A stretch of 64,000 nucleotides of DNA from an uncultured virus (IMG/VR IMGVR_UViG_3300043411_001904) (lineage: Duplodnaviria; Heunggongvirae; Uroviricota; Caudoviricetes), in IMG/VR virus record IMGVR_UViG_3300043411_001904, one strand, 5' to 3'. The notes under the pieces were generated by a model that had not been told where the DNA came from, made no database searches, and saw only the letters and a list, made by a program, of their open reading frames with translations. Position numbers and translations under genes: made by a program. Positions 6,609 through 33,882 of this stretch are shown here, piece after piece; positions within the stretch are counted from its first letter, which is position 1, and the number at the start of each line of letters is the position of its first letter.

Positions 6609-6647
6609 TCATGATTAAGAACGGGAATGGTTGAGATGAGGTAAATA

Positions 6648-7823
6648 CTAAACCTTATCAATATCAAACATACCTAATTTCTTCATACCCAATAAAAGAT
6701 CATTCAAAAGAGGCTGATAAACTTTTTGATTGTCAAAATTATCTTTAATATACAATTTAGTATACATCTGACTTATCTTTTTACAATGATCAACTAATGA
6801 ATTGAAAAGATAGTGTGGTGATTTTTCTGTCTTTGCTTGAAGAAAAGCATACTTTAACTGGTTAGATGTAAAATCAGAAATATCATTTGGTAACATACCC
6901 GCTGATTTCATTTTAGCTAGAGTATAACTCAAATACAGTCCCCAAGATGACTTAACATCATCAATTGATTTAAGATCAATATTCTTAACAGACTCAGGAG
7001 AGTATTTCAATATATGACCAGAGATAACATTCCAAGCTAATTTTTTATCTCCATCGAATTTAGAAGATACTTGGTCCAAAATATCATCCATCATAATAAC
7101 ATTACCTTCCGAAGACGACATCTTCTTACCATCAACCATAACCAACCCAAGACCAATATGATCAATATCAGGAAACAGAGATTTCAATGATTTAAAATGA
7201 TTATCTTGCTCAAATCCAGTTATGTATAAAGTAGACCCATCTAGTTTTTGTGCCAATGTAACATCTTGATAGAAATAGGAACTAGATCCGTCAGATTTAA
7301 TCCCAACAATCTTTGATCCATTAACATCAAAAACAAGAGTACCTTTATACTCTCCAACACCATCTTCAAGAATGGAAGTATTGACTAGCTTTTGTCCGGA
7401 AGCAAAATGAATTGAATCAATTTTATACCCAAATGATTCACAATGAGATTTAAATTTATCCAAGGCATCATCTTGATCAACCTTACCGGACAAAGTATCA
7501 CCTAAAATAGCAATATATTTTTCCCCAATACCTAATGATTGGATAGATTTTGCAAAAATCAAATTGGATAAGTGTCCCAAGTGTAGATGTTTATTCAAAT
7601 TTGGAGAAAATCCATCAACAAATTCATAAACCTTAGGTGATTCAAAAAGATCATATAGATTTTGATCTCCAATTAGAATATTAGTAAATCCACCCGATTT
7701 CTCAGATTCTAATCCCCAATGAGATATCCAATCAGATACTTTCTGATTCGGATCTCCCCATACACAGAAATTAAATCCCATGTTTTTAGGAGTAGTTTTA
7801 ATATCGGATATCTTGATCTTCAT
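6648..7823 (-). CDS. argS: arginyl-tRNA synthetase (compact, Arg-free)
   Basis: SPNLNKHLHLGH (HIGH), KSDG..Y..QD, YITGFEQDNHF, KMSSSEG (KMSKS), GLYLSYTLAK; start at MKIKIS directly after a TATATTTG promoter. Confidence 0.88.
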   Translation of the reverse strand: MKIKISDIKTTPKNMGFNFCVWGDPNQKVSDWISHWGLESEKSGGFTNILIGDQNLYDLFESPKVYEFVDGFSPNLNKHLHLGHLSNLIFAKSIQSLGIGEKYIAILGDTLSGKVDQDDALDKFKSHCESFGYKIDSIHFASGQKLVNTSILEDGVGEYKGTLVFDVNGSKIVGIKSDGSSSYFYQDVTLAQKLDGSTLYITGFEQDNHFKSLKSLFPDIDHIGLGLVMVDGKKMSSSEGNVIMMDDILDQVSSKFDGDKKLAWNVISGHILKYSPESVKNIDLKSIDDVKSSWGLYLSYTLAKMKSAGMLPNDISDFTSNQLKYAFLQAKTEKSPHYLFNSLVDHCKKISQMYTKLYIKDNFDNQKVYQPLLNDLLLGMKKLGMFDIDKV

Positions 7824-7839
7824 GGAACAAATATACGAA

Positions 7840-9258
7840 TTAAATCCGATCGAATAAAATTTGCTTTTTGCCACCCTTTATTAAAAGGTCAATCTCATCA
7901 CATTTCTCTTTTCCAAACAGCGGAACATATAAAGAATTAACAACATTCAATAGATAATCCAAATTTGATAATTGACTAAGATAATCAGTTGATGACCACG
8001 GCTTATTATCATTAATATACTTATTACCAACTTTAACCAACTCATTAGTAAATCTCAAAGCATCTTTTACTTTGAAATTGTTCCAAGATTCTCTCACTTT
8101 TTTATCATATGACAAAACCAAATCAACAAAATCATTTTGAGGATTAACTAGATTCCCTTCACATTTAATATCAACTAGATGGAGGACCCTAGACACCAAA
8201 TTGCCCCAATCATTCACAATTTCAGAGTTCCAAATATTCTTCAAATCGTCCTCATTCCAGGAAGAATCTGAATATGTACTTAGTCCACCCAAAGCATAGT
8301 ATCTAACGGGATACAATCCATATTTATCTAATTGTTCAATAGGATCTATAACATTCCCAATACTTTTGGAAATCTTAAGTCCATTTTTATCTAGAATCGT
8401 ACCATGCACCAATAACTTTCCGGTTTTCTTAATACCTTCAGATTCCAAAAATGATTGAAATATGATAGCCTGAAATCTAAGATTATCAGGACCACAAATC
8501 TGCACCACATCATTCCAATTAAAATTATCTGTTAAATATCCAGCAGCAAATATGTAATTTAATAAGGCCTCCAACCACACGTAAATGATCTGAGAATCAT
8601 CATCGGGCACTGAAATTCCCCAAGGACATTTTTGTACACTTCTAGACACAGATATGTCACCCACATTATCTATTAGATTATATAACTCATCTAATTTCGA
8701 TTTAGGTTCTAAGAAATTAGGATTTTGCTCAATCCAATTCAATAAAGAATTTCGATATTTAGAAATCTTAAAGAAATAATTCTCTTCTTCTATAATTTCA
8801 ATATTTGTTGTAGGATGATCTAAGCATTTACCATCAACTAGATCAGAGTCTTGTTTGTGTGATTCACATCCTTTGCAATATTTTCCTTTGTAAAATCCTT
8901 TATAAATATCTCCGCGATCTACAAACCTAGACCAAATTATCTTAACTTTCTCATGATGGTCGGGATCAGACGTCTTATAAAAGGAATCATACTCAATACT
9001 AAACCGATCACAGAAATCTTTCCAAGTATGTGTTAAATTCTTAATATATTCCGGAGTTGGAATTCCAATCTCTTGAGATTTCTCCCAGACTTTGGCTCCG
9101 TGTTCATCCAAACCAACATTAAAGTGAACATCATCCCCAATACTCTTGAACCATTTAGAGATAGCATCACCAAGAATAAATTCAAAAGCATGGCCAATAT
9201 GAGGAACTGAGTTCACATATGGCAAAGTGGTGGTTATAAATTTGTTTTTGATTTCTAT
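7840..9258 (-). CDS. metG: methionyl-tRNA synthetase (Met-free, no AUG start)
   Basis: KFITTTLPYVNSVPHIGH, GLDEHG, CxxC knuckle, YVWLEAL, KISKSIGN, NDWGNLVSR; start placed at ATA 9258 (alternatives ATT 9267, ATC 9252, TTG 9225). Confidence 0.9.
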   Translation of the reverse strand: MEIKNKFITTTLPYVNSVPHIGHAFEFILGDAISKWFKSIGDDVHFNVGLDEHGAKVWEKSQEIGIPTPEYIKNLTHTWKDFCDRFSIEYDSFYKTSDPDHHEKVKIIWSRFVDRGDIYKGFYKGKYCKGCESHKQDSDLVDGKCLDHPTTNIEIIEEENYFFKISKYRNSLLNWIEQNPNFLEPKSKLDELYNLIDNVGDISVSRSVQKCPWGISVPDDDSQIIYVWLEALLNYIFAAGYLTDNFNWNDVVQICGPDNLRFQAIIFQSFLESEGIKKTGKLLVHGTILDKNGLKISKSIGNVIDPIEQLDKYGLYPVRYYALGGLSTYSDSSWNEDDLKNIWNSEIVNDWGNLVSRVLHLVDIKCEGNLVNPQNDFVDLVLSYDKKVRESWNNFKVKDALRFTNELVKVGNKYINDNKPWSSTDYLSQLSNLDYLLNVVNSLYVPLFGKEKCDEIDLLIKGGKKQILFDRI

Positions 9259-9266
9259 TGATTTAA

Positions 9267-10445
9267 TTAATAACTTACAGGAAATGGAATAACATCATGA
9301 ATTTTCTGACTCTTACAAATATACATTAAAAGCCTTTCAAATCCTAAACCAAAACCTGAATGAACAACTGATCCCCATCTTCTAGTGGACAAATACCAAT
9401 CCATTTTTTGTATATCAATTCCAGAGCTCATAATTTCTGACTTTAGCTTGTCATAATCATCTTCTCTTTGGGAACCACCAACCAATTCTCCAACCTCTGG
9501 AAATATTAAATCGAAACACAAAGCCTTATCACCTTCGGTTTTCATATAAAATGGCTTCAATGACTTTGGATAATGTGTAATGAAAACAGGCAACTTATAC
9601 TTATCTGATATCAATTTTTCAACTTCAGATCCAATATCCTCACCATATTTAACTCCAAATTCTTTGCAAATTTCATCATATGTCCGAACAATCCAATCAG
9701 GATCAACAATTTTTAAATGATCAGATCCAATTCCCAACTGAGAAAATTCATAATCAGATTTAGTAACCACATATCTAATCGTCTTCTTCAAAAAATCCTC
9801 AGTGAATTTAACTGTTTGATCCAAATCGTAAAAAGCCATCTCAGGCTCAATCATCCAAAATTCAGATAAATGTTTCTTAGTTGCTGATTTCTCAGCTCGA
9901 AAACACGGAGAGAATGTATAAATTTTACCCAATGACATCATACCAACTTCACCATGAAGTTGTCCCGACACAGTTAGTTTTTCATCCATCCAATCTGATT
10001 TTACATCAAACGTCTCTCCGGCTCCTTCACAATCAGCATGGGTAATAATCGGGGTATAATATTGATAAAATCCAAAGTCCTCCAAAGTCCTATGGATAGC
10101 TTGTGTCAAATGATGTCTAATCTTCCATGTAGCTTGAAATCCTTTCGTTCTACCCCTTAGTTCAGGAATGGTTCTAAGGTAATCTAATGTGTGATGTTTT
10201 GGTTGAATAGGATAATCATCATCAGAAGAACCAACAATTTCTATTCGAGATGCCAAAAACTCAGGCAGTCCCTTAGGTGTCATTGAATCCATTCCCTGAC
10301 ATATCAGAGACGACCCAACTTTTGGGTCCCCAATGACCACACAATCTCCATCCCTTGCGGTGACTTGGTGATCTCTAGCACCATCTGTAACTGATAGGAA
10401 CATCAATCCCTTTGATTTCCTAACTGATTTTATCCAACCTTTCAT
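9267..10445 (-). CDS. asnS: asparaginyl-tRNA synthetase (Asn-free)
   Basis: OB-fold start (KGWIKSVR), DCEGAGETF, LTVSGQL, FRAEKS..KHLSEFWMIEPE, GELVGGSQRE, GFGLGFERL. Confidence 0.92.
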   Translation of the reverse strand: MKGWIKSVRKSKGLMFLSVTDGARDHQVTARDGDCVVIGDPKVGSSLICQGMDSMTPKGLPEFLASRIEIVGSSDDDYPIQPKHHTLDYLRTIPELRGRTKGFQATWKIRHHLTQAIHRTLEDFGFYQYYTPIITHADCEGAGETFDVKSDWMDEKLTVSGQLHGEVGMMSLGKIYTFSPCFRAEKSATKKHLSEFWMIEPEMAFYDLDQTVKFTEDFLKKTIRYVVTKSDYEFSQLGIGSDHLKIVDPDWIVRTYDEICKEFGVKYGEDIGSEVEKLISDKYKLPVFITHYPKSLKPFYMKTEGDKALCFDLIFPEVGELVGGSQREDDYDKLKSEIMSSGIDIQKMDWYLSTRRWGSVVHSGFGLGFERLLMYICKSQKIHDVIPFPVSY

Positions 10446-10701
10446 CTTCAATTTGTTTTATTTTGTTGCTCCTTCTTAATACTTTAAGGATTGATCTGAA
10501 TTCTTCTTTATGATCTTCTTTCCATAACGTGGTTCCCGATCCACAATTACCATAAAAAACCGTCAATCCTATTCTATCTCCACTATCTACATACTCCCAA
10601 GATATTGGTGTATTAGGAGATAAAATTCCCGGAAATGTCAACCTAATAGCCTCTAAAATAACAGGATCAGAATTAGGAAATTTAACCTCTTTATACTCCA
10701 T
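10420..10701 (-). CDS. hypothetical protein with C-terminal RxxKI motif
   Basis: RRSNKIKQI near C-terminus. Confidence 0.6.
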   Translation of the reverse strand: MEYKEVKFPNSDPVILEAIRLTFPGILSPNTPISWEYVDSGDRIGLTVFYGNCGSGTTLWKEDHKEEFRSILKVLRRSNKIKQIEDERLDKIS

Positions 10702-11378: not shown

Positions 11379-11394
11379 ATTGTTAGTATTTTTG

Positions 11395-11480
11395 TACCGG
11401 AGGTTGGAGTCGAACCAACAATAGGAGTAAACCAATCCCCTTATGAGGAGGACACCATTACCACATCGGATCACACCGGC
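11395..11480 (-). tRNA. tRNA with CAT anticodon (Met or Ile2) on a long-variable-arm body
   Basis: TCCTC-CTCATAA-GGGGA; about 15-nt variable region; GTTGG-TTCGACT-CCAAC. Confidence 0.8.
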
Positions 11481-11773: not shown

Positions 11774-11984
11774 CGAACACCTTTTCTATTTTTTCTAATC
11801 GTCTCTGTGAGATAAACTTCGTAAAATAAGATACCACTAAAGTAGCAACATATCCTTTAACACTCATATCTAAATTACACTTATCTATATGTAACTTGAC
11901 AAATTCAAAACATTCAGATTTAATTAAATCATCACTAACGTAGTGCCTTTCCGCATATCTATCAATTATATCTTTAATATACAT
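11760..11984 (-). CDS. hypothetical protein with C-terminal RxxKI motif
   Basis: RRLEKIEKVF. Confidence 0.55.
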   Translation of the reverse strand: MYIKDIIDRYAERHYVSDDLIKSECFEFVKLHIDKCNLDMSVKGYVATLVVSYFTKFISQRRLEKIEKVFDEKY

Positions 11985-11988
11985 ATTA

Positions 11989-12531
11989 TTATTTTTTAAG
12001 GTAATAAACAAGAGCACTTTCAGAAAAAAAAGATGGTAAATCTTTATCTGATTTATCAAATTTTATAAAATCAAATTCATTACAAATCCTACTATCTAGT
12101 TCATCTAGTAACTTATTAAATTTTTCTTTTTTTAGAGATAAATTAGACTTAAAATTGGTACTTATACCAATTATAATACTGTATTCAATTTTATGCCTTT
12201 TAAGTTGAATAATCAATGATCGTAAACTGCTTTGATAGTCAATTAATGAGTTCTCATCACTCTGGATACTTGGAGAAGATTGCAAATAATCATTAAGGAT
12301 ATCAAATCTATTAGATGATCCTGTTATAATTTTTTCATCAGTAGAAATAAATATATAATTCGGTTTAGAATCAATAATATATCTAATAATCAACACAAAG
12401 TCATAATCTATACCCTCATCCTCAAGCTCAGAAATAAGAATATCATTGATACTATCAATCGTATCATCAATTATCGGAAGTGTTGATTTAGAAATGTGCT
12501 TTTCAATAAATTTTTCCCATCTATAAATCAT
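11989..12531 (-). CDS. hypothetical late protein (MIYRWEKFIE tag)
   Basis: GATATATA upstream; variant of the N-terminal motif. Confidence 0.6.
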   Translation of the reverse strand: MIYRWEKFIEKHISKSTLPIIDDTIDSINDILISELEDEGIDYDFVLIIRYIIDSKPNYIFISTDEKIITGSSNRFDILNDYLQSSPSIQSDENSLIDYQSSLRSLIIQLKRHKIEYSIIIGISTNFKSNLSLKKEKFNKLLDELDSRICNEFDFIKFDKSDKDLPSFFSESALVYYLKK

Positions 12532-12564
12532 ATCTTATATATCATAAATCAATTTTATTTTTAG

Positions 12565-12637
12565 AGCTAGAACCCAGAATTTAACTGGGATTACGTCATT
12601 ACCAATGACGTGTAATCAACCTTTATACGATTCCAGC
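12565..12637 (-). tRNA. tRNA-Thr(GGT)
   Basis: GCTGGAA..TTCTAGC; CGTCA-TTGGTAA-TGACG. Confidence 0.85.
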
Positions 12638-12910
12638 AATGTCATCTATCTTACTATCCCTGATCTTTTCTATATCATATTTAAATGTATGGAATTGATC
12701 CGAAAATTCTTCTCCATTTTCCATTTTGACTGTTAAAATATCTGAAGTTTGAGACCACATTGACCTAGACATTACCCAAGGACCTTGTGATATACGAATA
12801 ACTTGACCCCTTCTAACTTTTAACCTAAAAGGTATTCCCACCAAAGACCCATCATATTCAGTTCCATTATTCAAAACAAAATCACCTATTCTAAATTTAT
12901 TCTTGTTCAT
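12623..12910 (-). CDS. hypothetical protein with C-terminal RxxKI motif
   Basis: KFRIGD start; IRDSKIDDI end. Confidence 0.6.
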   Translation of the reverse strand: MNKNKFRIGDFVLNNGTEYDGSLVGIPFRLKVRRGQVIRISQGPWVMSRSMWSQTSDILTVKMENGEEFSDQFHTFKYDIEKIRDSKIDDIAGIV

Positions 12911-13511: not shown

Positions 13512-14231
13512 TTAAGTCTCTAATATAGTAAATTTATTATTCCACCAACAGGGAATATAATTATTAATTTTACAATGTTCAATAAGTGATTTTTTCTTCT
13601 CATCAACAGTTAAAAAATATAATGGTCTTGAGTATTTATTAGTAGGATTTTTACTTATAACAGATTTACACTCACACAAATAAATTTTTCCATTACTATC
13701 TTTTATTATAAAGTCGGGAGTATATCTCCTGATTTTACCATCATATAAGTATTCTATGTGGTCATAAAATCTATCCAACTCGATAACACTGTAATTTTTA
13801 CAAAAGAATGTAAGGAAATTAAATTCCAATTTTGAATCACATCTTACGGATTTTCCATCAAATATAAATTCACATCTAATCGAATTAAACGAGAATTTAC
13901 CCTCAGATCTAGCTTTGGTAGATTTTATTGAAGCATTGGTTCTATAAGACTCATTTTCCCAAGTTCTTTTTATTGAACAACTATGGGAACACGTCTTTTG
14001 ATTTCTTTTACTAAAAGTAACAATGAAATCTCTACTACAATAAAGACAAATTTTGTTAATTTTTGGATTTCCAGAATTCTTTTTTAGAAGAGTTTTACTA
14101 ACCTTAGTATTTATCTCCAATCTCTTATTTCTTGTTGAAAACGATCTAGAACAAACACGAGAGCAAAACTCTCCACTTGAATATTGACTATATTTCATTC
14201 CATCTTTTTCTCCACAATTTTTACAAATCAT
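13512..14231 (-). CDS. Zn-finger plus TnsA-like PD-(D/E)XK endonuclease (putative homing endonuclease)
   Basis: CxxC..CSxxC repeats; DSKLE..YTPDF..ECK. Confidence 0.75.
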   Translation of the reverse strand: MICKNCGEKDGMKYSQYSSGEFCSRVCSRSFSTRNKRLEINTKVSKTLLKKNSGNPKINKICLYCSRDFIVTFSKRNQKTCSHSCSIKRTWENESYRTNASIKSTKARSEGKFSFNSIRCEFIFDGKSVRCDSKLEFNFLTFFCKNYSVIELDRFYDHIEYLYDGKIRRYTPDFIIKDSNGKIYLCECKSVISKNPTNKYSRPLYFLTVDEKKKSLIEHCKINNYIPCWWNNKFTILET

Positions 14232-14274
14232 AAGATATATATCAAATTCGAACCTCTACCTTATCGTATTTTAG

Positions 14275-14345
14275 TACCCCAAGGTGAAATCGAATCACCA
14301 CCTTCACTACGTCAAAGTGATACGCTACCACTACGCCATTGGGAT
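14275..14345 (-). tRNA. tRNA-Val(GAC)
   Basis: TCACT-TTGACGT-AGTGA. Confidence 0.88.
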
Positions 14346-14346
14346 G

Positions 14347-14445
14347 TGGTGAACTAGATTGGAATTGAACCAACTTTTGCGACCGTAATGGTCGCCGTAG
14401 ACCGACTATCCACTTCATGTGGCGGACCATTACTACCTCTAGCTC
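14347..14445 (-). ncRNA. tRNA-like RNA with hairpin inserted in the D-loop, non-canonical anticodon loop and encoded CCA
   Basis: GAGCTAG/CTAGTTC-ACCA acceptor; GTAG/CTAC D-stem enclosing CCAC-ATGAA-GTGG; GCGACC-ATTAC-GGTCGC. Confidence 0.7.
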
Positions 14446-14448
14446 TAG

Positions 14449-14531
14449 AAGCGGGAATCAGATTCGAACTGATGTTCTCTTTCGAGTTAGGGCTTATGAG
14501 GCCCCTGGTACCATCTCCAGTCGATCCCGCG
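14449..14531 (-). tRNA. initiator-like tRNA-Met(CAT) with extra variable hairpin
   Basis: C1:U72 mismatch; GGGC-CTCATAA-GCCC; CTC-GAAA-GAG extra arm. Confidence 0.75.
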
Positions 14532-14563
14532 ATTTAATTATACAAGTATAGTAAAATTTGTTG

Positions 14564-14634
14564 TACCCCGAGATGAATTCGAATCATCACCTCCGCCATG
14601 TAAAAACGGAACGCTACCATTACGCCATCGGGGC
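14564..14634 (-). tRNA. tRNA-Val(TAC)
   Basis: CCGTT-TTTACAT-GGCGG. Confidence 0.88.
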
Positions 14635-14639
14635 ATTAG

Positions 14640-14725
14640 TGATTCTGGTAGGAATCGAACCTACGTTAACCTATTCGGCCTTCCGGTTGTAAGCCGGACG
14701 TTCTTAACCACTGAACTACAGAATC
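14640..14725 (-). tRNA. tRNA-Val(TAC) with long variable arm
   Basis: TCCGG-CTTACAA-CCGGA; GGCC-GAATA-GGTT extra arm. Confidence 0.8.
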
Positions 14726-14888: not shown

Positions 14889-14894
14889 ATTTTG

Positions 14895-14971
14895 TTGCGA
14901 CGAATGGATTTGAACCACTGACCTTTCCCCTAATAAGGTGGGAATGCTCTCCCTGACTGAGCTACATCGCA
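14895..14971 (-). tRNA. tRNA-like gene, undetermined anticodon (10-nt loop)
   Basis: TTCCC-ACCTTATTAG-GGGAA with intact other arms. Confidence 0.7.
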
Positions 14972-15431: not shown

Positions 15432-15503
15432 AGGATTCACTCGAACTCGAATCGAGGACACATGGGTACGAATCACGTATTTTTCCGACTAAACTATGAA
15501 TCC
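15432..15503 (-). tRNA. tRNA-Thr(CGT)
   Basis: GGATTCA..TGAATCC; loop TTCGTAC. Confidence 0.82.
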
Positions 15504-15504
15504 A

Positions 15505-16161
15505 TTAATAACTTTTATCTTCATTATACCTAACCATTCTAGAATGTCTCCCTTTACCCCTGTTCAAAGATTTGTAAGTTGGAGTCAATGAATGACAATT
15601 TGGACACAATAATTTCAAATTAGATAAATCATTATTTTCTGAATTTCCATCAATATGTTCTATTTCGATTGGAACCTTTCCTGTTGTCAGATTAATTTGA
15701 CACCATCCACAATCCATACATTTATTACCATGTGTTTTAATCAGATATTTTTTAATCGACCTACTAGAACCATTTCCACTTACAATTATTAAATTTCTTA
15801 ATTCTTCTTTATGTAAATCATTGCAATTCTTTGAACAATATTTAACATTCCCCTTACCAATTATCTCAGAGTCACAAACTACACATTTCAATCTCCACTT
15901 CACTCGGGTCCTATTAACATTAATAGCTGAACATCTTCTGCTACAAAACTTTCTACCATCTGAAACAATACATTTAAATTCCTTATTACAATTTTCACAT
16001 TTAACTGTTTCTCTTTTAGAGTCATAGAATTTTGATGAAATAGATAACTTTGATTTAATTCTAACTATTGTAGATCTAGAAACTCCCAATTCCTTAGAAA
16101 TTCTAAAATTTGACATCCCCTGATCAACTAACTCAAATACATCAGCCCATAATTTTTCCAT
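15505..16161 (-). CDS. HNH homing endonuclease with HTH and Zn fingers
   Basis: ISKELGVSRSTI HTH; EHIDGNSENN..NLKLLCPNCH. Confidence 0.9.
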   Translation of the reverse strand: MEKLWADVFELVDQGMSNFRISKELGVSRSTIVRIKSKLSISSKFYDSKRETVKCENCNKEFKCIVSDGRKFCSRRCSAINVNRTRVKWRLKCVVCDSEIIGKGNVKYCSKNCNDLHKEELRNLIIVSGNGSSRSIKKYLIKTHGNKCMDCGWCQINLTTGKVPIEIEHIDGNSENNDLSNLKLLCPNCHSLTPTYKSLNRGKGRHSRMVRYNEDKSY

Positions 16162-16206
16162 ACCCTATATATTCAGAAGTGTGAGCTTCCCTTGGAAAGG
16201 GAGTAG

Positions 16207-16294
16207 AGCCGGGAGTGGGATTCAAACCCACGATGGTCGCTTTCGCTATACTAACTTACAAGGTTAGGGCCTTCGTTCTCTTGGCTATCCCGGC
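16207..16294 (-). tRNA. tRNA-Thr(TGT) with long variable arm
   Basis: CTAAC-CTTGTAA-GTTAG; GC-GAAA-GC extra arm. Confidence 0.8.
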
Positions 16295-16309
16295 AATTAT
16301 TTAATAATG

Positions 16310-16657
16310 CTATTTACCTTTCTCTCTATTAAGTCTAACTTCATTCTCTGGAAAAAGAATAACACAGTTAAGAGGATTTTTATAATCTATAGTTTGCCAA
16401 GTTCCATTTTTCCTGACATGGGGAATACCACATTCCTTTAAAACATTAGATATCTTAATATACTCATTACTTAGTATATCAACTACATTAGTGTCTTTAT
16501 TATAATCATATTCTATACCTTCCTCGTCAAGAAATTGTATTAGCTTATCAACATCACCATTTGAAGAATCATAATATCCCGTATAGGGATTAGGTTCTGT
16601 CATAAGTATAGGAGCATTTTCATTAACAACAAAAGAATCAAATTTTTTAATATTCAT
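16310..16657 (-). CDS. hypothetical protein (MNIKKFDSF tag)
   Basis: recurrent N-terminal motif. Confidence 0.65.
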   Translation of the reverse strand: MNIKKFDSFVVNENAPILMTEPNPYTGYYDSSNGDVDKLIQFLDEEGIEYDYNKDTNVVDILSNEYIKISNVLKECGIPHVRKNGTWQTIDYKNPLNCVILFPENEVRLNREKGK

Positions 16658-19299: not shown

Positions 19300-19309
19300 A
19301 TGTTTGTTG

Positions 19310-19393
19310 TCCAAGAGGAAGGATTCGAACCTCCGTAAAAGATCCACAAACGCAAATCGTTGTGAAAATTGACTTCCAATAGTCTACTCTCGG
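19310..19393 (-). tRNA. tRNA-like gene with extended anticodon arm
   Basis: CCGAGAG/CTCTTGG acceptor; D and T arms present; TTCACAA..TTGTGGA long arm. Confidence 0.65.
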
Positions 19394-26785: not shown

Positions 26786-27069
26786 AATATTTCTATAACT
26801 TTACCCCAAACCTGTTTAGTCCATCCGTTGATTCCTCCTTTATTATTACCAATAAGAAGACCTTTATTTTGATCCTTACCTTTTACCAAATGTGTATATA
26901 AATTGCCCCTAACCTTACAAAAGACTATATCTCCGATCTTACACTCTTCCCACGTAATAGGCTTTAATTTGTGAGGCTGTCCACTACTAATAAGTGGAAC
27001 CATAGAATTACCCTTCTCTTTGGTAATAAACTCTTCACCAGACAATAATTTATCTATTTTCCAATGCAT
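26782..27069 (-). CDS. S24/S26 peptidase-like protein
   Basis: KGNSMVPLI..GDIVF..THLVK..GNN. Confidence 0.65.
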   Translation of the reverse strand: MHWKIDKLLSGEEFITKEKGNSMVPLISSGQPHKLKPITWEECKIGDIVFCKVRGNLYTHLVKGKDQNKGLLIGNNKGGINGWTKQVWGKVIEIL

Positions 27070-27281
27070 TACAATCCCAATTTATCTAACTTAATACCCC
27101 TCAATTTACAAACAATCTTTGATAGATTATTCCCATTCCAAAAACTACATAAAATCATTACTGAAGAGCTAAATTTACCACCACAACAATTACACTCAAA
27201 AATAACATCACCAAGATGATTATTCTGATATAATGGAACCATTTCCAAATTAATACAACAATTAGCACATATTAGAATCAT
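27069..27281 (-). CDS. small Cys-rich protein with C-terminal RxxKL motif
   Basis: CANC..CNCC; LRGIKLDKL. Confidence 0.5.
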   Translation of the reverse strand: MILICANCCINLEMVPLYQNNHLGDVIFECNCCGGKFSSSVMILCSFWNGNNLSKIVCKLRGIKLDKLGL

Positions 27282-28057
27282 ACCTTGACCAAATCAATTT
27301 TATTCCATTTTTTATTAAGAAAATTTAATTTGTTAAGATCAATTCCACAATTGTTTTTCGAAATGTGACCCTCGTTAAAAAGTCTTACCATGTCATCAAT
27401 ACTCAAAATTTGATTATTCTTATCAAAGTTGGGATCAGGGTGTGACCAACCAAGCCTAAAAATCCAATTTAGGATAGCTTTCTTATTATAGTCATTATAG
27501 AATTCCATAGAGCTAGTACCATCCCTCTTAGATATCTTTCGACCACTTTGGAAGAGTAGCCCAGCGTGATGGACATTAGGGAATACTTTACCACCCTCAA
27601 CAGAGGCGATCATATCCCAAATTTTAATTTGCTTTTCAAGATTATTAATATGGTCCACACCACGAACTATATCCGTAATATCGTAGTCATAGTCATCTAA
27701 AATCGAGCAGAAATTATAAGTCGGGAATCCGTTATTTCTGAGAATGACCATTTTATAGTCGCCCATATCAACTTCATACCCCTTATCTGATAGAGTGCCA
27801 ATTTTCTTAGCAACATAAGCATATCTATCCAACCGACTAGATTGTGAAAAGGTAACATCATGATCGAATCCAAAAGATCCCATCATGTTATAGATATAAT
27901 CAATGTGTTCTTTTTTATTTCTTTCTTGATCAGTATCATCTATTCGAAGAATAAAAGAACCATCATTGGACTTAGCCATTAAATAATTAAGAAGAGCTGT
28001 CCGAAGAGTTCCAATATGGAAAAGGCCAGTGGGGGATGGGGCAACTCGTGTTTTCAT
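27278..28057 (-). CDS. gltX: glutamyl-tRNA synthetase-like catalytic domain (GluRS/GluQ-like, truncated)
   Basis: TRVAPSPTG.FHIG, LRIDDTD, GFPTYN, VRGVDH, KISKRDG, LGWS; no anticodon-binding domain. Confidence 0.8.
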   Translation of the reverse strand: MKTRVAPSPTGLFHIGTLRTALLNYLMAKSNDGSFILRIDDTDQERNKKEHIDYIYNMMGSFGFDHDVTFSQSSRLDRYAYVAKKIGTLSDKGYEVDMGDYKMVILRNNGFPTYNFCSILDDYDYDITDIVRGVDHINNLEKQIKIWDMIASVEGGKVFPNVHHAGLLFQSGRKISKRDGTSSMEFYNDYNKKAILNWIFRLGWSHPDPNFDKNNQILSIDDMVRLFNEGHISKNNCGIDLNKLNFLNKKWNKIDLVKV

Positions 28058-28084: not shown

Positions 28085-28549
28085 CTAAATTCCAATAGAT
28101 GATATTTTTTCATCCCTAAAGCAACGACCACCCAATGAATAATATCCCGATCCAATAAGACCATCAGATTTAACAAAATTTAAATATTTGAGATCAACCA
28201 TTCTCTGTAAAAATGGTTTATATATGGAATTTTCGAATCCATTGTGATAGCTTTCCCTAAGACAATACTTATTCCTATACTGAGGATATCTACCATAATA
28301 TTCATTCTCTATAAGAAGATGTTCCTTACTTATTAAGAAGGAATAAACAACCCAACAACCAGAATAAAATGGTGTTGATTCACTTTTACCCATTTTATCC
28401 CAATAGCACTTTAGGGTCCAATCACAATCCTCACTAAATAATGATTTAACAAATTTAACAAATTCAATAGGATCAATACTCTCAATTAGAGAATTGATAT
28501 CCCCATTGATATGGTATTGACCATCAGAATAGGAAACTACAACCTGCAT
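28085..28549 (-). CDS. hypothetical protein with C-terminal RxxKI motif
   Basis: FRDEKISSI; start moved outside the tRNA. Confidence 0.6.
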   Translation of the reverse strand: MQVVVSYSDGQYHINGDINSLIESIDPIEFVKFVKSLFSEDCDWTLKCYWDKMGKSESTPFYSGCWVVYSFLISKEHLLIENEYYGRYPQYRNKYCLRESYHNGFENSIYKPFLQRMVDLKYLNFVKSDGLIGSGYYSLGGRCFRDEKISSIGI

Positions 28550-28551
28550 TG

Positions 28552-28638
28552 TGGGGTGTGAATGGATTCGAACCACCGAAGCCCCGAAGGGCACCCAAGG
28601 TACAACTTGAGCTCTTTTGACCACTTGGATAACACCCC
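28552..28638 (-). tRNA. tRNA-Tyr(GTA)-like with irregular anticodon loop
   Basis: GGGGTGT/ACACCCC; GCCC-TTCG-GGGC variable arm; loop containing TTGTAC. Confidence 0.75.
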
Positions 28639-29398: not shown

Positions 29399-29751
29399 TA
29401 ATTTATAAGAGAATCAATCTTCAGATTCCTTAAAGATGACCTCAATTTAGATATTTCTTCCTTTACAACCACCTCATTTTTCCAATTACTTTCGATAAAT
29501 GAAAAACTATCGTCTAAAACTTTAAGGAAACTCTTGATGTTACTTGAAATATTGGGATTTATATTACCATTACCAGGCCACAAAAGCTCAATTCGACTAT
29601 CTCCATTTTGGATAGGGAAAAATATATTAGTTTCCCCAATACAAGGAGAAAATGATTCAATGAGAGACTCAATTTTTTCGTCAACTGCATGTCTAGCCAA
29701 TCCATTAACATTAACATAGACAACAAAAATAGGACTATCTAACCTCGACAT
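29398..29751 (-). CDS. hypothetical protein with C-terminal RxxKI motif
   Basis: LRNLKIDSLIN. Confidence 0.6.
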   Translation of the reverse strand: MSRLDSPIFVVYVNVNGLARHAVDEKIESLIESFSPCIGETNIFFPIQNGDSRIELLWPGNGNINPNISSNIKSFLKVLDDSFSFIESNWKNEVVVKEEISKLRSSLRNLKIDSLIN

Positions 29752-30247
29752 AATTCTTACTTATATCTAATGATAGATTCCGATTACTAAATTGTTTTAA
29801 ACCAGTTACTTCCAAAAGACAAACATCCTTAATAAAATTGGGTATTTTTAATTTATAAGCTCTAGTTGGAATTTCTATCTCAGCAACTATTAAATGATAT
29901 CCATTATCAAACTCATCAACTTCCCAATTTAACCTCCCATATGGATAAATATGTCTAATCTTCTTAATAAATCTAGAAGATACTTCTGGGTCTAAGCATT
30001 TTTCTTTAAATTCCAAAAATTCTTTCTTGGAAATGTCTTTCTCATCTTCTAAATTTTCCAATTTAGAGATGCTCTTTTTTATAGTATGAATATATCTTAT
30101 TCCAGATTTGGAATCCCACTCCCGTACCCTTTCCCAAATTCCTGATTTATTTTTCATGTAGAACTGATCAATTTTTACCGAATCTATTGGTTGAATATCC
30201 GGTAAAGACTTTAAGAGAAATTTTCTCTCAATTTCGATTTTTGGCAT
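29735..30247 (-). CDS. CYTH-domain triphosphate tunnel metalloenzyme
   Basis: EIERKFL, WEVDEF, AEIE, EVTG..FSN. Confidence 0.88.
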   Translation of the reverse strand: MPKIEIERKFLLKSLPDIQPIDSVKIDQFYMKNKSGIWERVREWDSKSGIRYIHTIKKSISKLENLEDEKDISKKEFLEFKEKCLDPEVSSRFIKKIRHIYPYGRLNWEVDEFDNGYHLIVAEIEIPTRAYKLKIPNFIKDVCLLEVTGLKQFSNRNLSLDISKNYVEVR

Positions 30248-30292
30248 GTAAGTTTAAGTATATATCAAGTTTTGGGACCTAGTTTAAAAAAC

Positions 30293-30321
30293 AAAAGGGA
30301 TCATGGATAATGATCCCTTTT
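30293..30321. terminator. intrinsic terminator (bidirectional-type)
   Basis: AAAAGGGATCAT-GGATA-ATGATCCCTTTT. Confidence 0.75.
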
Positions 30322-30373
30322 GTAATGAATCAAAGTGAGAAGACAACAAACAACAATGATTCATTTATTGATA

Positions 30374-30731: not shown

Positions 30732-31485
30732 GGGGCTGAGATTATACCCGTTATCGACAAATCTTTTGTGAGATTATGTTTTCCTCACTTATCCACCAAT
30801 GTTGCCACTGGTATCTTGTCAATCTCAGTTACTTGAAGGGTAACCAATCCTATCGTGTGTCCAAACTCAACCATTACTCCATCTATTCAGAAGTGCCCTC
30901 CTGATTCAACCTTGCGGGTCTATAAACTTTTCGTGATCAAAACAACAGACCTTGCGGGTTTATTGTCTCCCAATTTACCAAAGGTATTAGGAATTAGAGA
31001 CCTTTCGGAAATACACGCCACGAGAATTTGGCTTTATTTTATATAATGCAATAAAATTGATTATTGGACGACGCTCTCGTGGAGCAGCTACGATCCTTTT
31101 GGAATCACAATACTACACGCCATCCTATCAGTTCCCTGATGGTCAAGAAGATCTCCGCTAAAAGCGTCATGAATCACACGCACATAGTGCGGGACACAGA
31201 ACACATATTCCACATCGACCAACTAAACTGAAACAAGCATTCTAGAAGTTGGCTTCTATCACACTCAAATCCACAAATCATCTTATAGCCTTAAGCATCA
31301 AACACCACATTTAGGGACATAATCACATCCATAGTATGATATTGAGATCCAAGTCACTTGACCGAGGTTCTCATACCGATTCGCTTATGATTAAACTCTT
31401 TAACAAGTCGGGATTGTTACCCTTTATCCCCGTTACCGGGTATTATTTATTCACATCCGAAGATGTGATGGACTCCATACAGCCC
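30732..31485 (-). ncRNA. large ornate ncRNA, GOLLD-like (about 750 nt)
   Basis: no credible ORF; higher GC; 5' GGGCTG pairs with 3' CAGCCC; many GNRA/UUCG hairpins (CCCGCAAGG twice, CCGAAAGG, CTTCGG); next to tRNA-like genes; family name from size and recalled motifs only. Confidence 0.65.
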
Positions 31486-31587: not shown

Positions 31588-31591
31588 TTTG

Positions 31592-31733
31592 TAGTCTGTC
31601 CAGGATTCGAACCTGATTTTCCGAGTGAAGCTCGGCGTCCTAGTGTGATAATCAACTCAGATCTTCAGACGAGATCCTCAAATTAATCCAACACACCTCC
31701 ATCATAAAGATGGATCCAGTAGACGAACAGACC
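31592..31733 (-). ncRNA. tRNA-Glu-derived RNA with a structured D-loop insertion of about 80 nt
   Basis: GGTCTGTTCGTCTA..TAGGAC; CCGAG-CTTCA-CTCGG; TTCGAAT T-loop; ACAGACT-A. Confidence 0.75.
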
Positions 31734-31761
31734 AAAAATTCGATGGAATAACCCATCATCG

Positions 31762-31939
31762 CAGTCTGTATTGGATTCGAACCAATGTTACCAATTAGAT
31801 CGTAACCTAATTAGTGTCCTAATATATTTTAGTCAAACGAGCTCAAGGCTCAGGTCATATAAAAAATTTTATACATTTTAATATAATATATTAAATTTTG
31901 ACCGACTAAAATACATTGGTACCCCTAGACGAACAGACC
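31762..31939 (-). ncRNA. tRNA-Glu-derived RNA with a D-loop insertion of about 100 nt and a tetraloop-capped anticodon arm
   Basis: same 5' GGTCTGTTCGTCTA; insertion closed by TATTTTAGTC/GACTAAAATA; ATTAGGT-TACG-ATCTAAT. Confidence 0.75.
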
Positions 31940-32017
31940 AAGAATATTCAAAGAACATTAACAATACAAATATAAGTAAAAATTTCTGAACTACAAAATA
32001 TTTTTTACTTTTTTTAG

Positions 32018-32104
32018 TGACCCGTTGTGGATATGAACCACAATCCCACATCCCATCTGGTTAACCCAATCGGGAATCTTGTGTCTTGCTTAGACTAACG
32101 GATC
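32018..32104 (-). ncRNA. tRNA-like RNA with extended anticodon arm
   Basis: GATCCGT/ACGGGTC-A; GTCT/AGAC D-stem; TGTGG-TTCATAT-CCACA. Confidence 0.65.
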
Positions 32105-32949: not shown

Positions 32950-33882
32950 TTAAAAATTTGTAAAATTTTTTTCTTTTGTAGGATTAATAATGTCTCCATC
33001 AAATCCTATCCTCAAATTGTGTCCGTCAAAAACCAAAGTCTCAGTTATATTACTCGGCTTAAATGTATTCTTATGATAAACTCTGATTGGAAAATCAAAA
33101 TTATCACTCAAATAGACATAATTAACACATTCACAAGATCCCTTAAAGGACCATTCCTTAAGTAAAAGGAAATTGTCCGATATCAGATCCTTCATATGAA
33201 ATTTAATAAAATTATCTTTAGAAAAATCATTGACTGGCATGAGAGAAACAATACCCACATTGTTTATACCAACACTACCAACCCATTCAAGAAACTTAAA
33301 TATCTCTTCCTTAGAATCAATATGTCCCTTTATTAAATTACACCTGATCTGGAATTGCTCTTTATTTTTCTTATACTTTGAATATTCAATAATTTCTTGG
33401 GTCGATGGTGTCTTTGATTTAAAAATTGAATTATTTATTTCGTCATTATAATGGTGTCGACTTAGTTGTATATAATCATACATTCCAACAACATTGGATG
33501 TCATGAGCTTATCAAATCGAAACCCATCAGTGGTCATTGTAAACTCACAATTAGGAGCATATTTTCTACATTCTTCCGATATTTTGACAAAATTATCCCA
33601 ATAGAGTGTTGGCTCTCCCCCTGAGACAGCAATTTTCCTAATAGGAATCTTTGATGATATTTCAATCATGGACTCATGGAATTTATCCCAGTTCCATGTT
33701 TGGGCATCACTATGATAAATACAAAAATCACATTTAGAGTTGCAAAATTTCGTTCTTATATAAAGATTAATTCCTAAATCTTCTAAAGGAGTGCCTTCTT
33801 TACCAAATAATGAGCAATTGTGTGTTCTTAATTTTATATCTTGACCAAATATATCAATTGTACCGTTCTCTTTATTTAACAT
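32950..33882 (-). CDS. radical SAM enzyme
   Basis: CNSKCDFC; SGGEPT; TTDG. Confidence 0.9.
   Translation of the reverse strand: MLNKENGTIDIFGQDIKLRTHNCSLFGKEGTPLEDLGINLYIRTKFCNSKCDFCIYHSDAQTWNWDKFHESMIEISSKIPIRKIAVSGGEPTLYWDNFVKISEECRKYAPNCEFTMTTDGFRFDKLMTSNVVGMYDYIQLSRHHYNDEINNSIFKSKTPSTQEIIEYSKYKKNKEQFQIRCNLIKGHIDSKEEIFKFLEWVGSVGINNVGIVSLMPVNDFSKDNFIKFHMKDLISDNFLLLKEWSFKGSCECVNYVYLSDNFDFPIRVYHKNTFKPSNITETLVFDGHNLRIGFDGDIINPTKEKNFTNF

Follow-up and report, generated by a model that had tools for sequence, protein, structure and literature searches.

A cut-down phage glutamyl-tRNA synthetase-like gene with glutamate loss among its relatives, beside three cognate-free synthetases

RESULTS

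A short GluRS-like gene reduced to the catalytic domain

The gene under study occupies positions 27278..28057 on the minus strand of a 64-kb stretch of viral DNA, referred to below as the window. The ORF list gives a CDS of 259 amino acids plus a stop, with an ATG at 28057, and family alignments start at this same annotated methionine. Pfam recovered the glutamyl-tRNA synthetase (GluRS) catalytic domain alone, PF00749, split in two stretches (E 6.5e-48). The anticodon-binding domain, PF19269, had no match in the protein, and a scan of the other 53 window ORFs gave none either; when aligned to E. coli GltX the protein ends at GltX position ~316, where the GltX anticodon-binding domain starts. 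The middle of the catalytic domain was also shortened, with 68 residues separating the DTD motif from PTYNF vs 133 in E. coli GltX, and ~65 residues gone from the insertion between the two Rossmann halves. What remains is a stretch of 15 residues (residues 87-101; 27755..27799, minus strand), which in our alignments replaces the ~85-residue acceptor-binding/Zn insertion of GltX; the Cys/His cluster of that insertion is absent from the aligned phage protein. The first-pass annotation of this locus had described a protein of 259 residues with only seven Glu, a missing anticodon-binding domain, and a shortened catalytic middle, and the present analysis agrees on each point.

Structure prediction gave a confident AF2 model (mean pLDDT 93.7), in which the remnant of the insertion forms a beta hairpin. 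By Foldseek, the model aligned to GluRS with TM scores of 0.80-0.86 and to GluQRS with 0.63-0.66. The closest solved structures by sequence were likewise bacterial GluRS (E 3e-44), with YadB at E 8e-15. The gltX_bact model TIGR00464 scored 224.1 bits, under its NCBIfam equivalog cut-off of 289.95, while the GluQRS models TIGR03838 and NF004314 reached 118.7 bits (cut-off 276.7) and 122.7 bits (cut-off 256), respectively.

Catalytic motifs are conserved across the family, and LRIDDTD does not track Glu content

All of the class I signature elements could be located on the minus strand. The HIGH-type motif is FHIGT (28007..28021; residues 13-17), with H14 and G16 invariant or nearly so in the family, and the KMSKS-type motif is KISKR (27524..27538; residues 174-178), which takes the form K[ILMF]SKR in all 120 close homologues. 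Between them lie LRIDDTD (27929..27949; residues 37-43), found in 116 of the 120 with LRVDDTD in the remaining 4, and RGVDH (27650..27664; residues 132-136), found in 112 of the 120. The HIGH and KMSKS motifs, and the positions that align with the active site of GltX, are invariant throughout the short GluRS-like family.

The first-pass annotation had read LRIDDTD and RGVDH as conserved glutamates replaced, and had taken these changes as a sign of glutamate avoidance. Both altered motifs are indeed present. However, the RGEDH glutamate is not a conserved one: among 99 full-length relatives, the RGxDH site carries D in 45, E in 23, and other residues in the rest. Cellular enzymes mostly have D at this site, whereas the phage protein has V. 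The glutamate of LRIEDTD is better kept in the same set (E in 85/99, D in 13/99); the position of D40 is occupied by E in E. coli GltX and GluQRS, and by D in GlnRS. Because LRIDDTD, with its LRVDDTD variant, runs through all 120 close homologues at Glu counts from 1 to 21, and is frequent among cellular GltX of 6-9% Glu, the motif changes are not evidence of Glu avoidance. D40 and V134 are not products of selection on Glu codons. D40 is the state of the whole clade, one used too by cellular GltX and GlnRS, and V134 goes with loss of the insertion domain.

The short clade resembles bacterial GltX more than GluQRS

The short GluRS-like clade is large, and the IMG/VR viral contigs that carry its members reach 607 kb. 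Besides 120 close homologues, we recovered 170 relatives among 183 IMG/VR pattern matches; relatives were clustered by k-mers and sort into three discrete architectural classes. Two members of the clade, P0158 and P0234, keep an Anticodon_2 domain together with LRIDDTD, which argues that the short forms derive from full-length, bacterial-type GltX. The resemblance to bacterial GltX (E. coli b2400; 4g6z, 8i9i, and 1j09) extends over the class I Rossmann core with its HIGH and KMSKS motifs, the positions that align with the active site, and the stem-contact region as far as DKLxWLN, and GltX is the top match by HMM, sequence, and fold. The phage protein differs from GltX in having no anticodon-binding domain, an acceptor-binding/Zn insertion cut to 15 residues, D for E in LRIEDTD, V at the RGxDH site, and a score under the equivalog cut-off.

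GluQRS/YadB (E. coli b0144; 1nzj and 4a91) likewise consists of a GluRS catalytic domain on its own, has no anticodon-binding domain, and is non-acidic at its RGxDL/H site as well (A in GluQRS, V here). These likenesses invite an alternative in which the phage protein would be a non-translational glutamyl transferase of GluQRS type, activating glutamate with no anticodon recognition and placing it onto non-decoding tRNA-like RNAs, at a modified base or at the 3' end, or onto some other acceptor, with a product used outside ribosomal decoding. We regard this as unlikely. The model scores, structure matches, and TM values given above all place the protein nearer to GluRS than to GluQRS. Furthermore, GluQRS has a Cys-rich insertion and KLSKQ, whereas the phage protein has no Cys cluster and carries KISKR, and it keeps the GWSH...DKLxWLN region of GltX that GluQRS lacks. 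In free trees, the short forms (support 99) stood apart from GluQRS (support 100). On the other side, an AU test that included only two GluQRS rows gave p 0.61 for short forms and GluQRS as one clade, and the tree so constrained beat the quick free tree by 6 log-likelihood units. Grouping with GluQRS is not favoured by scores or free trees, but the AU test does not reject it.

tRNA-Glu-bodied RNAs and a GOLLD RNA lie nearby

Two RNAs with the body of tRNA-Glu are encoded on the minus strand upstream of a GOLLD RNA. Unit B (31591..31733) has the acceptor stem, D stem, and T arm of tRNA-Glu and a D-loop insert of ~75 nt; its "anticodon" stem is capped by 5 nt in the predicted fold. It gave a weak Rfam tRNA match (21 bits) and has a 14-mer in common with the tRNA-Glu of another locus (L027). 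In unit A (31761..31939) the insert is long and AT-rich, and the anticodon arm is extended and non-canonical. The GOLLD RNA (30733..31125; Rfam RF02032, 252 bits against a cut-off of 150, E 7e-72) sits just downstream of both units on the same strand, and this order is repeated in L008 and L025. No canonical tRNA-Glu was found within the 64-kb window.

Across the family, tRNA-Glu genes recur near the short GluRS-like genes. They account for 14 of the 30 tRNAs within 500 nt and for 21 of the 54 within 1500 nt, the latter in 9 of 50 loci, and tRNA-Asp makes up 2 of those 54. The tRNA-Glu genes are on the same strand in all cases and directly upstream in most, and the upstream arrays of relatives consist of canonical tRNA-Glu(UUC/CUC). 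Interrupted tRNA-Glu-like units occur at distances of up to ~7 kb from the gene, both in the window and in L008, L025, L026, and L028. The first-pass annotation had suggested that the enzyme might act on the tRNA-Glu-derived RNAs of this locus. That link has circumstantial support in the upstream tRNA-Glu arrays and in interrupted units on at least four related phage contigs, though tRNA-Glu lies within 1.5 kb in just the 9 loci.

The kind of RNA nearby, canonical tRNA-Glu or interrupted units, bore a mixed relation to the Glu count of the protein, which is 2 in L025 and 19 in L028, two loci that both have interrupted units. Some of this evidence suits a GluQRS-like transferase, namely the neighbouring tRNA-Glu-bodied RNAs whose "anticodon" arms are capped by tetraloops or pentaloops or are oversized, and are incapable of decoding, and the normal Glu content of copies beside such arrays (L008, L026, and L028). 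The upstream arrays of canonical tRNA-Glu(UUC/CUC), and the purge of Glu codons described below, suit a decoding role better.

We also looked for a conserved partner that might supply tRNA binding in trans, and found none among 12 neighbouring window proteins. The only one of these to recur was that at 29735-30247, in 2 fetched loci. Neither of two candidate partner ORFs, a Cys-rich one of 70 aa (27069-27281) and one of 179 aa (28085-28624), recurred in fetched loci.

Three clustered synthetases lack their cognate residue

Elsewhere in the window, three clustered synthetase genes on the minus strand encode proteins without the amino acid of their own specificity, as the first-pass annotation had noticed. 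The AsnRS (9267..10451; asnS TIGR00457, 387 bits, cut-off 342.6) has no Asn in 394 aa against a background of 6.3% (P 6e-12), and 90 of 120 homologues are likewise free of Asn. The MetRS (7840..9225; TTG start; PF09334, E 8e-70) has no Met in 461 aa (P 1e-4), with no internal Met in 75 of 120 homologues. The third (6648..7874) is a divergent ArgRS-like protein with weak ArgRS matches and no Arg in 408 aa (P 1e-7); none of the six Arg codons occurs in its reading frame, whereas the other two frames hold 22 and 23. Such loss is not general, as the class II D/K/N enzymes near relatives of the GluRS-like gene in other phages (L040, L045, and L050) are normal in Lys, Asn, and Asp. HisRS-like fragments near such relatives contain 0-3 His, a count that is uninformative here.

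Glu is depleted across the short family and replaced by Asp

Glu counts over the 120 homologues ranged from 1 to 21, with Asp climbing from ~20 to 35 as Glu fell. Among representatives at 50% identity, 10 of 44 short forms had no Glu at all vs 0 of 99 long ones. When each of 50 distinct short-form phage loci was set against its own locus background, 44 fell below it in Glu, 23 of them at P<0.01; of all residues, Glu showed the strongest depletion (median -3.2 points) and Asp the strongest enrichment (+3.1). Low-Glu family genes hold 0-3 GAA/GAG in frame vs 5-15 in each other frame. These data show that Glu avoidance at the level of the family is real and gene-specific, with Asp taking the place of Glu. 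Two other causes were rejected: avoidance of a nucleotide motif, because GAA/GAG triplets are normal out of frame and it is therefore the codon that is avoided, and proteome-wide Glu poverty, because locus backgrounds stand at 5-9% Glu.

The trait has been gained or lost repeatedly. On a tree for which E and Q had been recoded to D as a guard against compositional attraction, members changed at least 12 times between ≤1% and ≥3.5% Glu. The first-pass annotation had named orthologues of ordinary Glu content as counting against its reading, and many close orthologues are of this kind, for example those in L006-L016, L026, L028, and L031, with 18-21 Glu (6.5-7.6% vs backgrounds of 6.7-8.6%). The trait also varies independently of the other synthetases. 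LR745206.1 encodes a Met-free MetRS, yet the GluRS-like protein of the same genome has 21 Glu, and a 94-kb contig, probably shared by both proteins, has an Asn-free AsnRS and a GluRS-like protein with 15 Glu. Glu avoidance is therefore decoupled from that of Met and, so far as those two proteins probably lie on one contig, from that of Asn.

The window's copy is intermediate in Glu

In the window's protein, the seven Glu stand at residues 45, 50, 95, 141, 154, 185, and 229. This amounts to 2.7%, where the 54 window ORFs stand at 5.4% (the binomial P of 0.029 is uncorrected for the 20 residue types), and the gene ranks fifth of 54 in Glu content, with four ORFs lower. Taken alone, this deficit is marginal and not beyond chance. 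It would fit an ordinary phage GluRS whose seven Glu reflect drift in a compositionally variable family, with no avoidance acting on this copy. Such a reading draws further on the continuous range of 5-21 Glu among close relatives, on the location of six of the seven Glu at family-conserved Glu columns, and on the motif changes, which are clade-wide and uninformative here. We nevertheless consider drift improbable, as the eight nearest relatives (73-86% identity) have 5-12 Glu each, where the Glu-rich third of the family has 15-21. This copy has also lost Glu from 6 of 12 family-conserved Glu columns, its Asp content is elevated (26 residues, 10.0% vs 7.1%), and three zero-cognate synthetases are encoded in the same genome. 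With many family members purged, some to 0 Glu, and this copy intermediate, "incomplete or relaxed" avoidance, as first annotated, is a fair wording, even if the copy's own deficit does not establish it. A decaying gltX remnant whose function is gone, as two lost domains and a score under the NCBIfam gltX cut-off might suggest, is very hard to reconcile with an intact reading frame, more than 120 same-length homologues with invariant catalytic motifs, a confident fold prediction, and discrete architectural classes in place of random truncations.

DISCUSSION

On balance, we lean towards a putative active, minimal, anticodon-independent GluRS that serves phage tRNA-Glu-type RNAs and in which cognate-codon avoidance is relaxed in the window's copy. 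Such an enzyme would consist of the Rossmann catalytic core and stem-contact part of a bacterial-type GltX, its anticodon-binding domain lost and its acceptor-binding insertion reduced to a hairpin. Having no means of reading an anticodon, it would most likely recognize the acceptor, D, and T body of phage tRNA-Glu-type RNAs and then load them with glutamate. In many relatives the substrates may be the ordinary tRNA-Glu(UUC/CUC) genes directly upstream; in the window's lineage they may be the tRNA-Glu-bodied RNAs with altered anticodon arms. Low Glu would reflect partial or relaxed selection that purges the enzyme's own codons from its gene, presumably to keep its translation possible during a shortage of Glu-tRNA, and the same selection would have run to completion in the AsnRS, MetRS, and ArgRS-like genes of the window and in many GluRS-like relatives.

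A broader and more doubtful scheme can be sketched, in which private charging systems operate in huge phages, and their synthetase genes have shed the cognate codons so as to remain translatable after the host supply of that aminoacyl-tRNA has been cut off, by host defence or by the phage. In the window's lineage, a natural class I GluRS with neither anticodon-binding domain nor acceptor-binding insertion might load glutamate onto anticodon-less tRNA-Glu-bodied RNAs encoded beside GOLLD, which would act as a glutamyl donor or decoy outside decoding. A role outside normal decoding would account for the relaxed Glu avoidance in this copy.

For a minimal GluRS, the nearest engineered parallel is the class I "urzyme," a catalytic core made without the CP1 insertion and the anticodon-binding domain. 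The phage protein similarly retains a catalytic core minus insertion and anticodon-binding domain. Urzymes are laboratory constructs, whereas the phage protein would be natural and conserved, with the stem-contact region retained as well. We know of no natural class I synthetase lacking the acceptor-binding insertion that charges tRNA. If the short protein does charge RNA, it would be a natural minimal class I synthetase, with a bearing on how small a synthetase can be and still charge tRNA, and on how orthogonal pairs are designed.

The compositional pattern has a precedent in work on low cognate bias in cellular biosynthetic enzymes, where proteins that restore the supply of an amino acid are poor in that residue, the rationale being that they can then be made during shortage of that amino acid. 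Like those proteins, the GluRS-like family falls below background in the cognate residue in a residue-specific manner (44/50 loci). The difference is that low cognate bias concerns statistical biases in cellular enzymes, while these are phage tRNA synthetases in which the purge goes down to zero. Our literature search found no extension of the idea to synthetases. Nor did it find any report of cognate-free phage synthetases or of this truncated GluRS in the literature covered, most subscription journals lying outside its scope. A cut-down phage GluRS with Glu loss in relatives, beside three cognate-free synthetases, thus appears to be an undescribed pattern. Among phage synthetases, removal of the cognate residue is nearly complete in AsnRS and MetRS and has recurred in GluRS. 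This points to a phase of infection during which specific aminoacyl-tRNAs are unavailable, and opens phage-host conflict over tRNA charging to direct test. The anticodon-less tRNA-Glu-like RNAs and GOLLD offer a concrete biochemical lead to the function of that RNA class.

Synthetases in large phage genomes are themselves familiar: in passages of their main text, Al-Shayeb et al. 2020 (PMC7162821) describe huge phages with up to 15 synthetases and many tRNAs and use a GluRS tree as their own example. Those same main-text passages make no mention of a truncated architecture or of cognate-residue depletion. The deposited genome nearest to the window's GluRS-like gene, LR745206.1 (68% identity), is a record of that study.

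A reduced GluRS-like core in phage genomes

The short GluRS-like gene lies at 27278–28057 (-), with an ATG start that agrees with the start of all relatives, and encodes 259 residues. The sequence details reported in the first-pass annotation were correct: the protein has seven Glu, LRIDDTD occupies residues 37–43, and RGVDH occupies residues 132–136; KISKR is found at residues 174–178. Pfam identified the class I Glu/Gln catalytic domain alone (E 6.5e-48), split over two stretches. The top NCBIfam model was gltX_bact at 224 bits, below its cut-off of 290, and GluQRS models ranked after it at 119–123 bits. The best solved-structure matches were bacterial GluRS (E 3e-44), with query residues 1–87 and 102–254 matching GluRS positions ~1–98 and ~170–320, and YadB/GluQRS was matched at E 8e-15 only. 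An AlphaFold model computed from 20 family members was confident (mean pLDDT 93.7) and superposed on GluRS structures with TM 0.80–0.86, and on GluQRS with 0.63–0.66. Aligned with E. coli GltX, GluQRS, and GlnRS, the phage protein has 15 residues in place of the Cys/His-bearing acceptor-binding insertion of GltX, and it ends where the anticodon-binding domain would begin. Motif spacing, computed on the 243 of 349 collected relatives that have all three landmark motifs, defined three classes: "mini" (60–79 residues), "midi" (90–109), and full (120–149). The mini class comprises 157 proteins, including the window copy; almost all members of this class, and most of the midi class, have no C-terminal domain.

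A word-indexed search returned 120 homologues of 243–284 residues at 61–100% identity. An exhaustive search gave 477 representatives at E≤1e-30, ranking short forms first and ordinary GltX of 430–500 residues after them. Relatives were encoded in 170 of 183 IMG/VR pattern matches, the viral contigs reaching 607 kb. Best matches in GTDB species genomes were 27–35% identical overall, and no short form was present among the 16 cellular loci examined from the best 80 of at least 594 matches, all being full length (418–470 aa, with one of 817 aa).

Because composition could otherwise draw Glu-poor rows together, E and Q were both treated as D in tree building. Nearly all short forms made up one clade, with support of 99 both in FastTree (125 rows) and in IQ-TREE under a mixture model (45 rows). 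This clade branches from within bacterial GltX, separately from two GluQRS sequences (support 100). The grouping with GluQ raised in the first-pass annotation was therefore absent from the free trees, whereas an AU test, with two GluQRS sequences in the set, did not reject a tree joining them to the short forms (p 0.61). This constrained tree outscored the quick free tree by 6 log-likelihood units, and since it is not rejected, the short forms are possibly sister to GluQRS. Two homologues in or adjoining the short-form clade, P0158 and P0234, carry LRIDDTD together with an Anticodon_2 domain and a complete catalytic domain, which speaks against such a sister relation and suggests that the short forms derive from full GltX by stepwise reduction.

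Signature motifs and glutamate content

The altered signature motifs had been read as a sign that the gene avoids its own Glu, a reading that the family does not support. Every one of the 120 close homologues has LRIDDTD or LRVDDTD, and 112 have RGVDH, irrespective of a Glu count that spans 1 to 21. At the first site, the 99 representatives of ≥400 residues carry E in 85 cases and D in 13, the latter with ordinary Glu contents. RIDDTD also occurs in cellular GltX of Pelagibacteraceae and Rhodobacteraceae (Glu 6–9%), and the aligned residue of E. coli GlnRS is D, as in the phage protein. The Glu of RGEDH is not conserved, since long forms mostly have D (45 of 99) or other residues there and E in only 23; V, S, or T predominates in short forms, and the site is A in GluQRS and V in the phage copy. 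The change to V, where D is usual, does not resemble avoidance of Glu; it accompanies loss of the insertion domain.

On its own, the window copy is only mildly Glu-poor: Glu makes up 2.7% of it and 5.4% of the 54 window ORFs, among which it ranks fifth (binomial P 0.029 without correction), and Asp is raised (10.0% vs 7.1%). Glu counts in the close homologues are ≤3 in 33 of 120 and ≥15 in 37, and as Glu falls, Asp climbs from ~20 to ~35 and Gln from ~5 to ~12. Zero-Glu proteins account for 10 of 44 short representatives at 50% identity vs none of 99 long ones. Of 50 phage loci compared, each encoding a distinct short protein, 44 have less Glu in that protein than in its flanking ORFs (5–9%), with P<0.01 for 23, these loci being related to one another and so not independent trials; across them, no residue is more depleted than Glu (median −3.2 points) or more enriched than Asp (+3.1). 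The loss is limited to the reading frame, with 0–3 GAA/GAG in frame vs 5–15 in each other frame. The recoded tree requires at least 12 changes between rows with ≤1% and rows with ≥3.5% Glu, and zero-Glu proteins adjoin sisters with 7–16 Glu. Six of 12 columns that are Glu in Glu-rich members are replaced in the window copy (S74, Y81, K84, D91, N161, and Q170), and six of its seven Glu fall in such columns, which places it about half-way between the extremes. The "incomplete or relaxed" avoidance proposed for this gene fits a family in which many members are purged, down to zero Glu, and the window copy is intermediate with a mild deficit. Avoidance does not follow one rule throughout, however: close orthologues of ordinary Glu content, which the first-pass annotation had listed as counting against it, do exist and are many (IMG/VR loci L006–L016, L026, L028, and L031, 18–21 Glu). 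LR745206.1, an uncultured phage of 634,780 bases that is nearest to the gene among deposited genomes (68% protein identity), encodes a Met-free MetRS (P0399) and a GluRS-like protein with 21 Glu. An AsnRS with 0 Asn (P0358) and a GluRS-like protein with 15 Glu (P0104) both list a 94,362-base contig, probably the same one.

Cognate-free synthetases in the window

Three adjacent synthetase genes at 6648–10451 (-) do have zero cognate residues, as first noticed: an ArgRS-like protein (408 aa, 0 Arg, background 3.9%, P 1e-7), a MetRS with a TTG start (461 aa, 0 Met, background 2.0%, P 1e-4), and an AsnRS scoring above the asnS cut-off (394 aa, 0 Asn, background 6.3%, P 6e-12). All six Arg codons are missing in frame from the ArgRS-like gene and are common out of frame, where cognate codons in the three-gene cluster are normal. 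Cognate depletion is family-wide for AsnRS (0 Asn in 90 of 120 homologues, one in 20) and MetRS (0 internal Met in 75 of 120, one in 19). The adjoining tRNA array holds the cognate tRNAs, namely Asn, two Met, and two Arg. Such depletion is not universal, as class II synthetases beside GluRS-like genes in other phages are of normal composition.

Linkage to tRNA-Glu and tRNA-Glu-bodied RNAs

By far the commonest tRNA near the 50 distinct short-form genes is tRNA-Glu (14 of 30 tRNAs within 500 nt; 21 of 54 within 1500 nt, in 9 loci), always on the strand of the gene. Frequently, two to four UUC and CUC tRNA-Glu genes form an array ending a few bases 5′ of the start codon, and the genes so preceded encode 0–9 Glu. 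The tRNA-Glu genes beside relatives look canonical; a tRNA gene scan found no canonical tRNA-Glu in the 64-kb window. Two tRNA-Glu-bodied units lie here at 31591–31733 and 31761–31939, both (-) like the GluRS-like gene. Both match the L027 tRNA-Glu exactly in the 5′ 14-mer, D stem, T arm, and 3′ acceptor strand, and differ from it by a large D-loop insert and an abnormal anticodon arm. Units with a D-loop hairpin insert and variable "anticodon" arms are a conserved class, forming arrays 5–7 kb from the GluRS-like gene in L008 (4 units, 13709–14587), L026 (3, 11932–12818), L028 (5, 15452–16596), and L025 (2, 7245–7709), with single units elsewhere. Predicted folds keep the cloverleaf frame; in several units the "anticodon" stem bears a four- or five-base cap or an oversized loop, and in one a 7-base loop. 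As folded, several units with tetraloop or pentaloop caps or oversized loops cannot decode, and ARAGORN gave most units no call or "tRNA-???". GOLLD RNA (252–324 bits) lies directly 3′ of the arrays in three contexts: the window (30733–31125, -), L008 (15225–15631), and L025 (8491–8894). A strong terminator-like hairpin at 30291–30323 separates the RNA block from the operon of the GluRS-like gene.

On balance, we lean towards a predicted active, anticodon-independent GluRS core that serves phage tRNA-Glu-type RNAs, with cognate-codon avoidance partial in this copy. The main alternative, GluQRS-like or other non-decoding glutamyl transfer onto anticodon-less RNAs, appears unlikely; it would fit the normal Glu of copies beside anticodon-less RNA arrays, and the profile and structure matches rank GluRS before GluQRS. 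For a GluRS core, the logic of avoidance would be that an enzyme restoring a charged tRNA must stay translatable while that tRNA is scarce. The supply might be cut by a host nuclease or kinase that targets the tRNA or synthetase, or by phage shut-off of the host. We infer this logic by analogy with the cognate bias hypothesis, which, in the passages cited, concerns biosynthetic enzymes (PMC4209129). Huge phages are described as encoding synthetases, with a GluRS tree shown, in passages of Al-Shayeb et al. 2020 (PMC7162821) that mention neither truncation nor cognate depletion. Full-text literature searches found no report of truncated phage GluRS or of cognate-depleted phage synthetases.

Other features of the window and related loci

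The window appears to come from a huge phage genome, with G+C of ~31%, 23 tRNA genes, and proteins that include phage lysozyme, PhoH, a TonB-plug protein, PnuC, and OmpH. No conserved protein neighbor of the GluRS-like gene was found in the related loci compared; the only one to recur, in L005 and L032 (64% identity), is a 170-aa protein at 29735–30247 (-) that begins MPKIEIERKFLL and had no Pfam or NCBIfam match at the thresholds used. Just 5′ of the tRNA-like units, on their strand, are an 88-nt "tRNA-Gly(CCC)" call with an oddly placed anticodon (32017–32104, -) and a 310-aa radical SAM protein (32950–33882, -) with weak HxsC/viperin-like matches. Midi-type genes in the IMG/VR loci L040, L045, L048, and L050 sit within translation islands with truncated HisRS-like proteins (236–250 aa), Thg1, EF-Ts, RNA ligase, PRPP synthetase, class II Asp/Lys/Asn-type synthetases, and repeated tRNA-Arg genes. 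A tRNA whose UUA anticodon would decode the TAA stop codon lies at 14894–14971 (-) within the window tRNA array, and another at 6628–6703 in L052/L053; the ORFs used here are intact under code 11. Four tRNA calls of 85–89 nt, with isotypes Met, Val, Thr, and Ala, lie at 11394–11480, 14639–14725, 16206–16294, and 19309–19393 (-). A long variable arm is normally absent from these isotypes, and inserts resembling those in the tRNA-Glu-like units may be common throughout the array.
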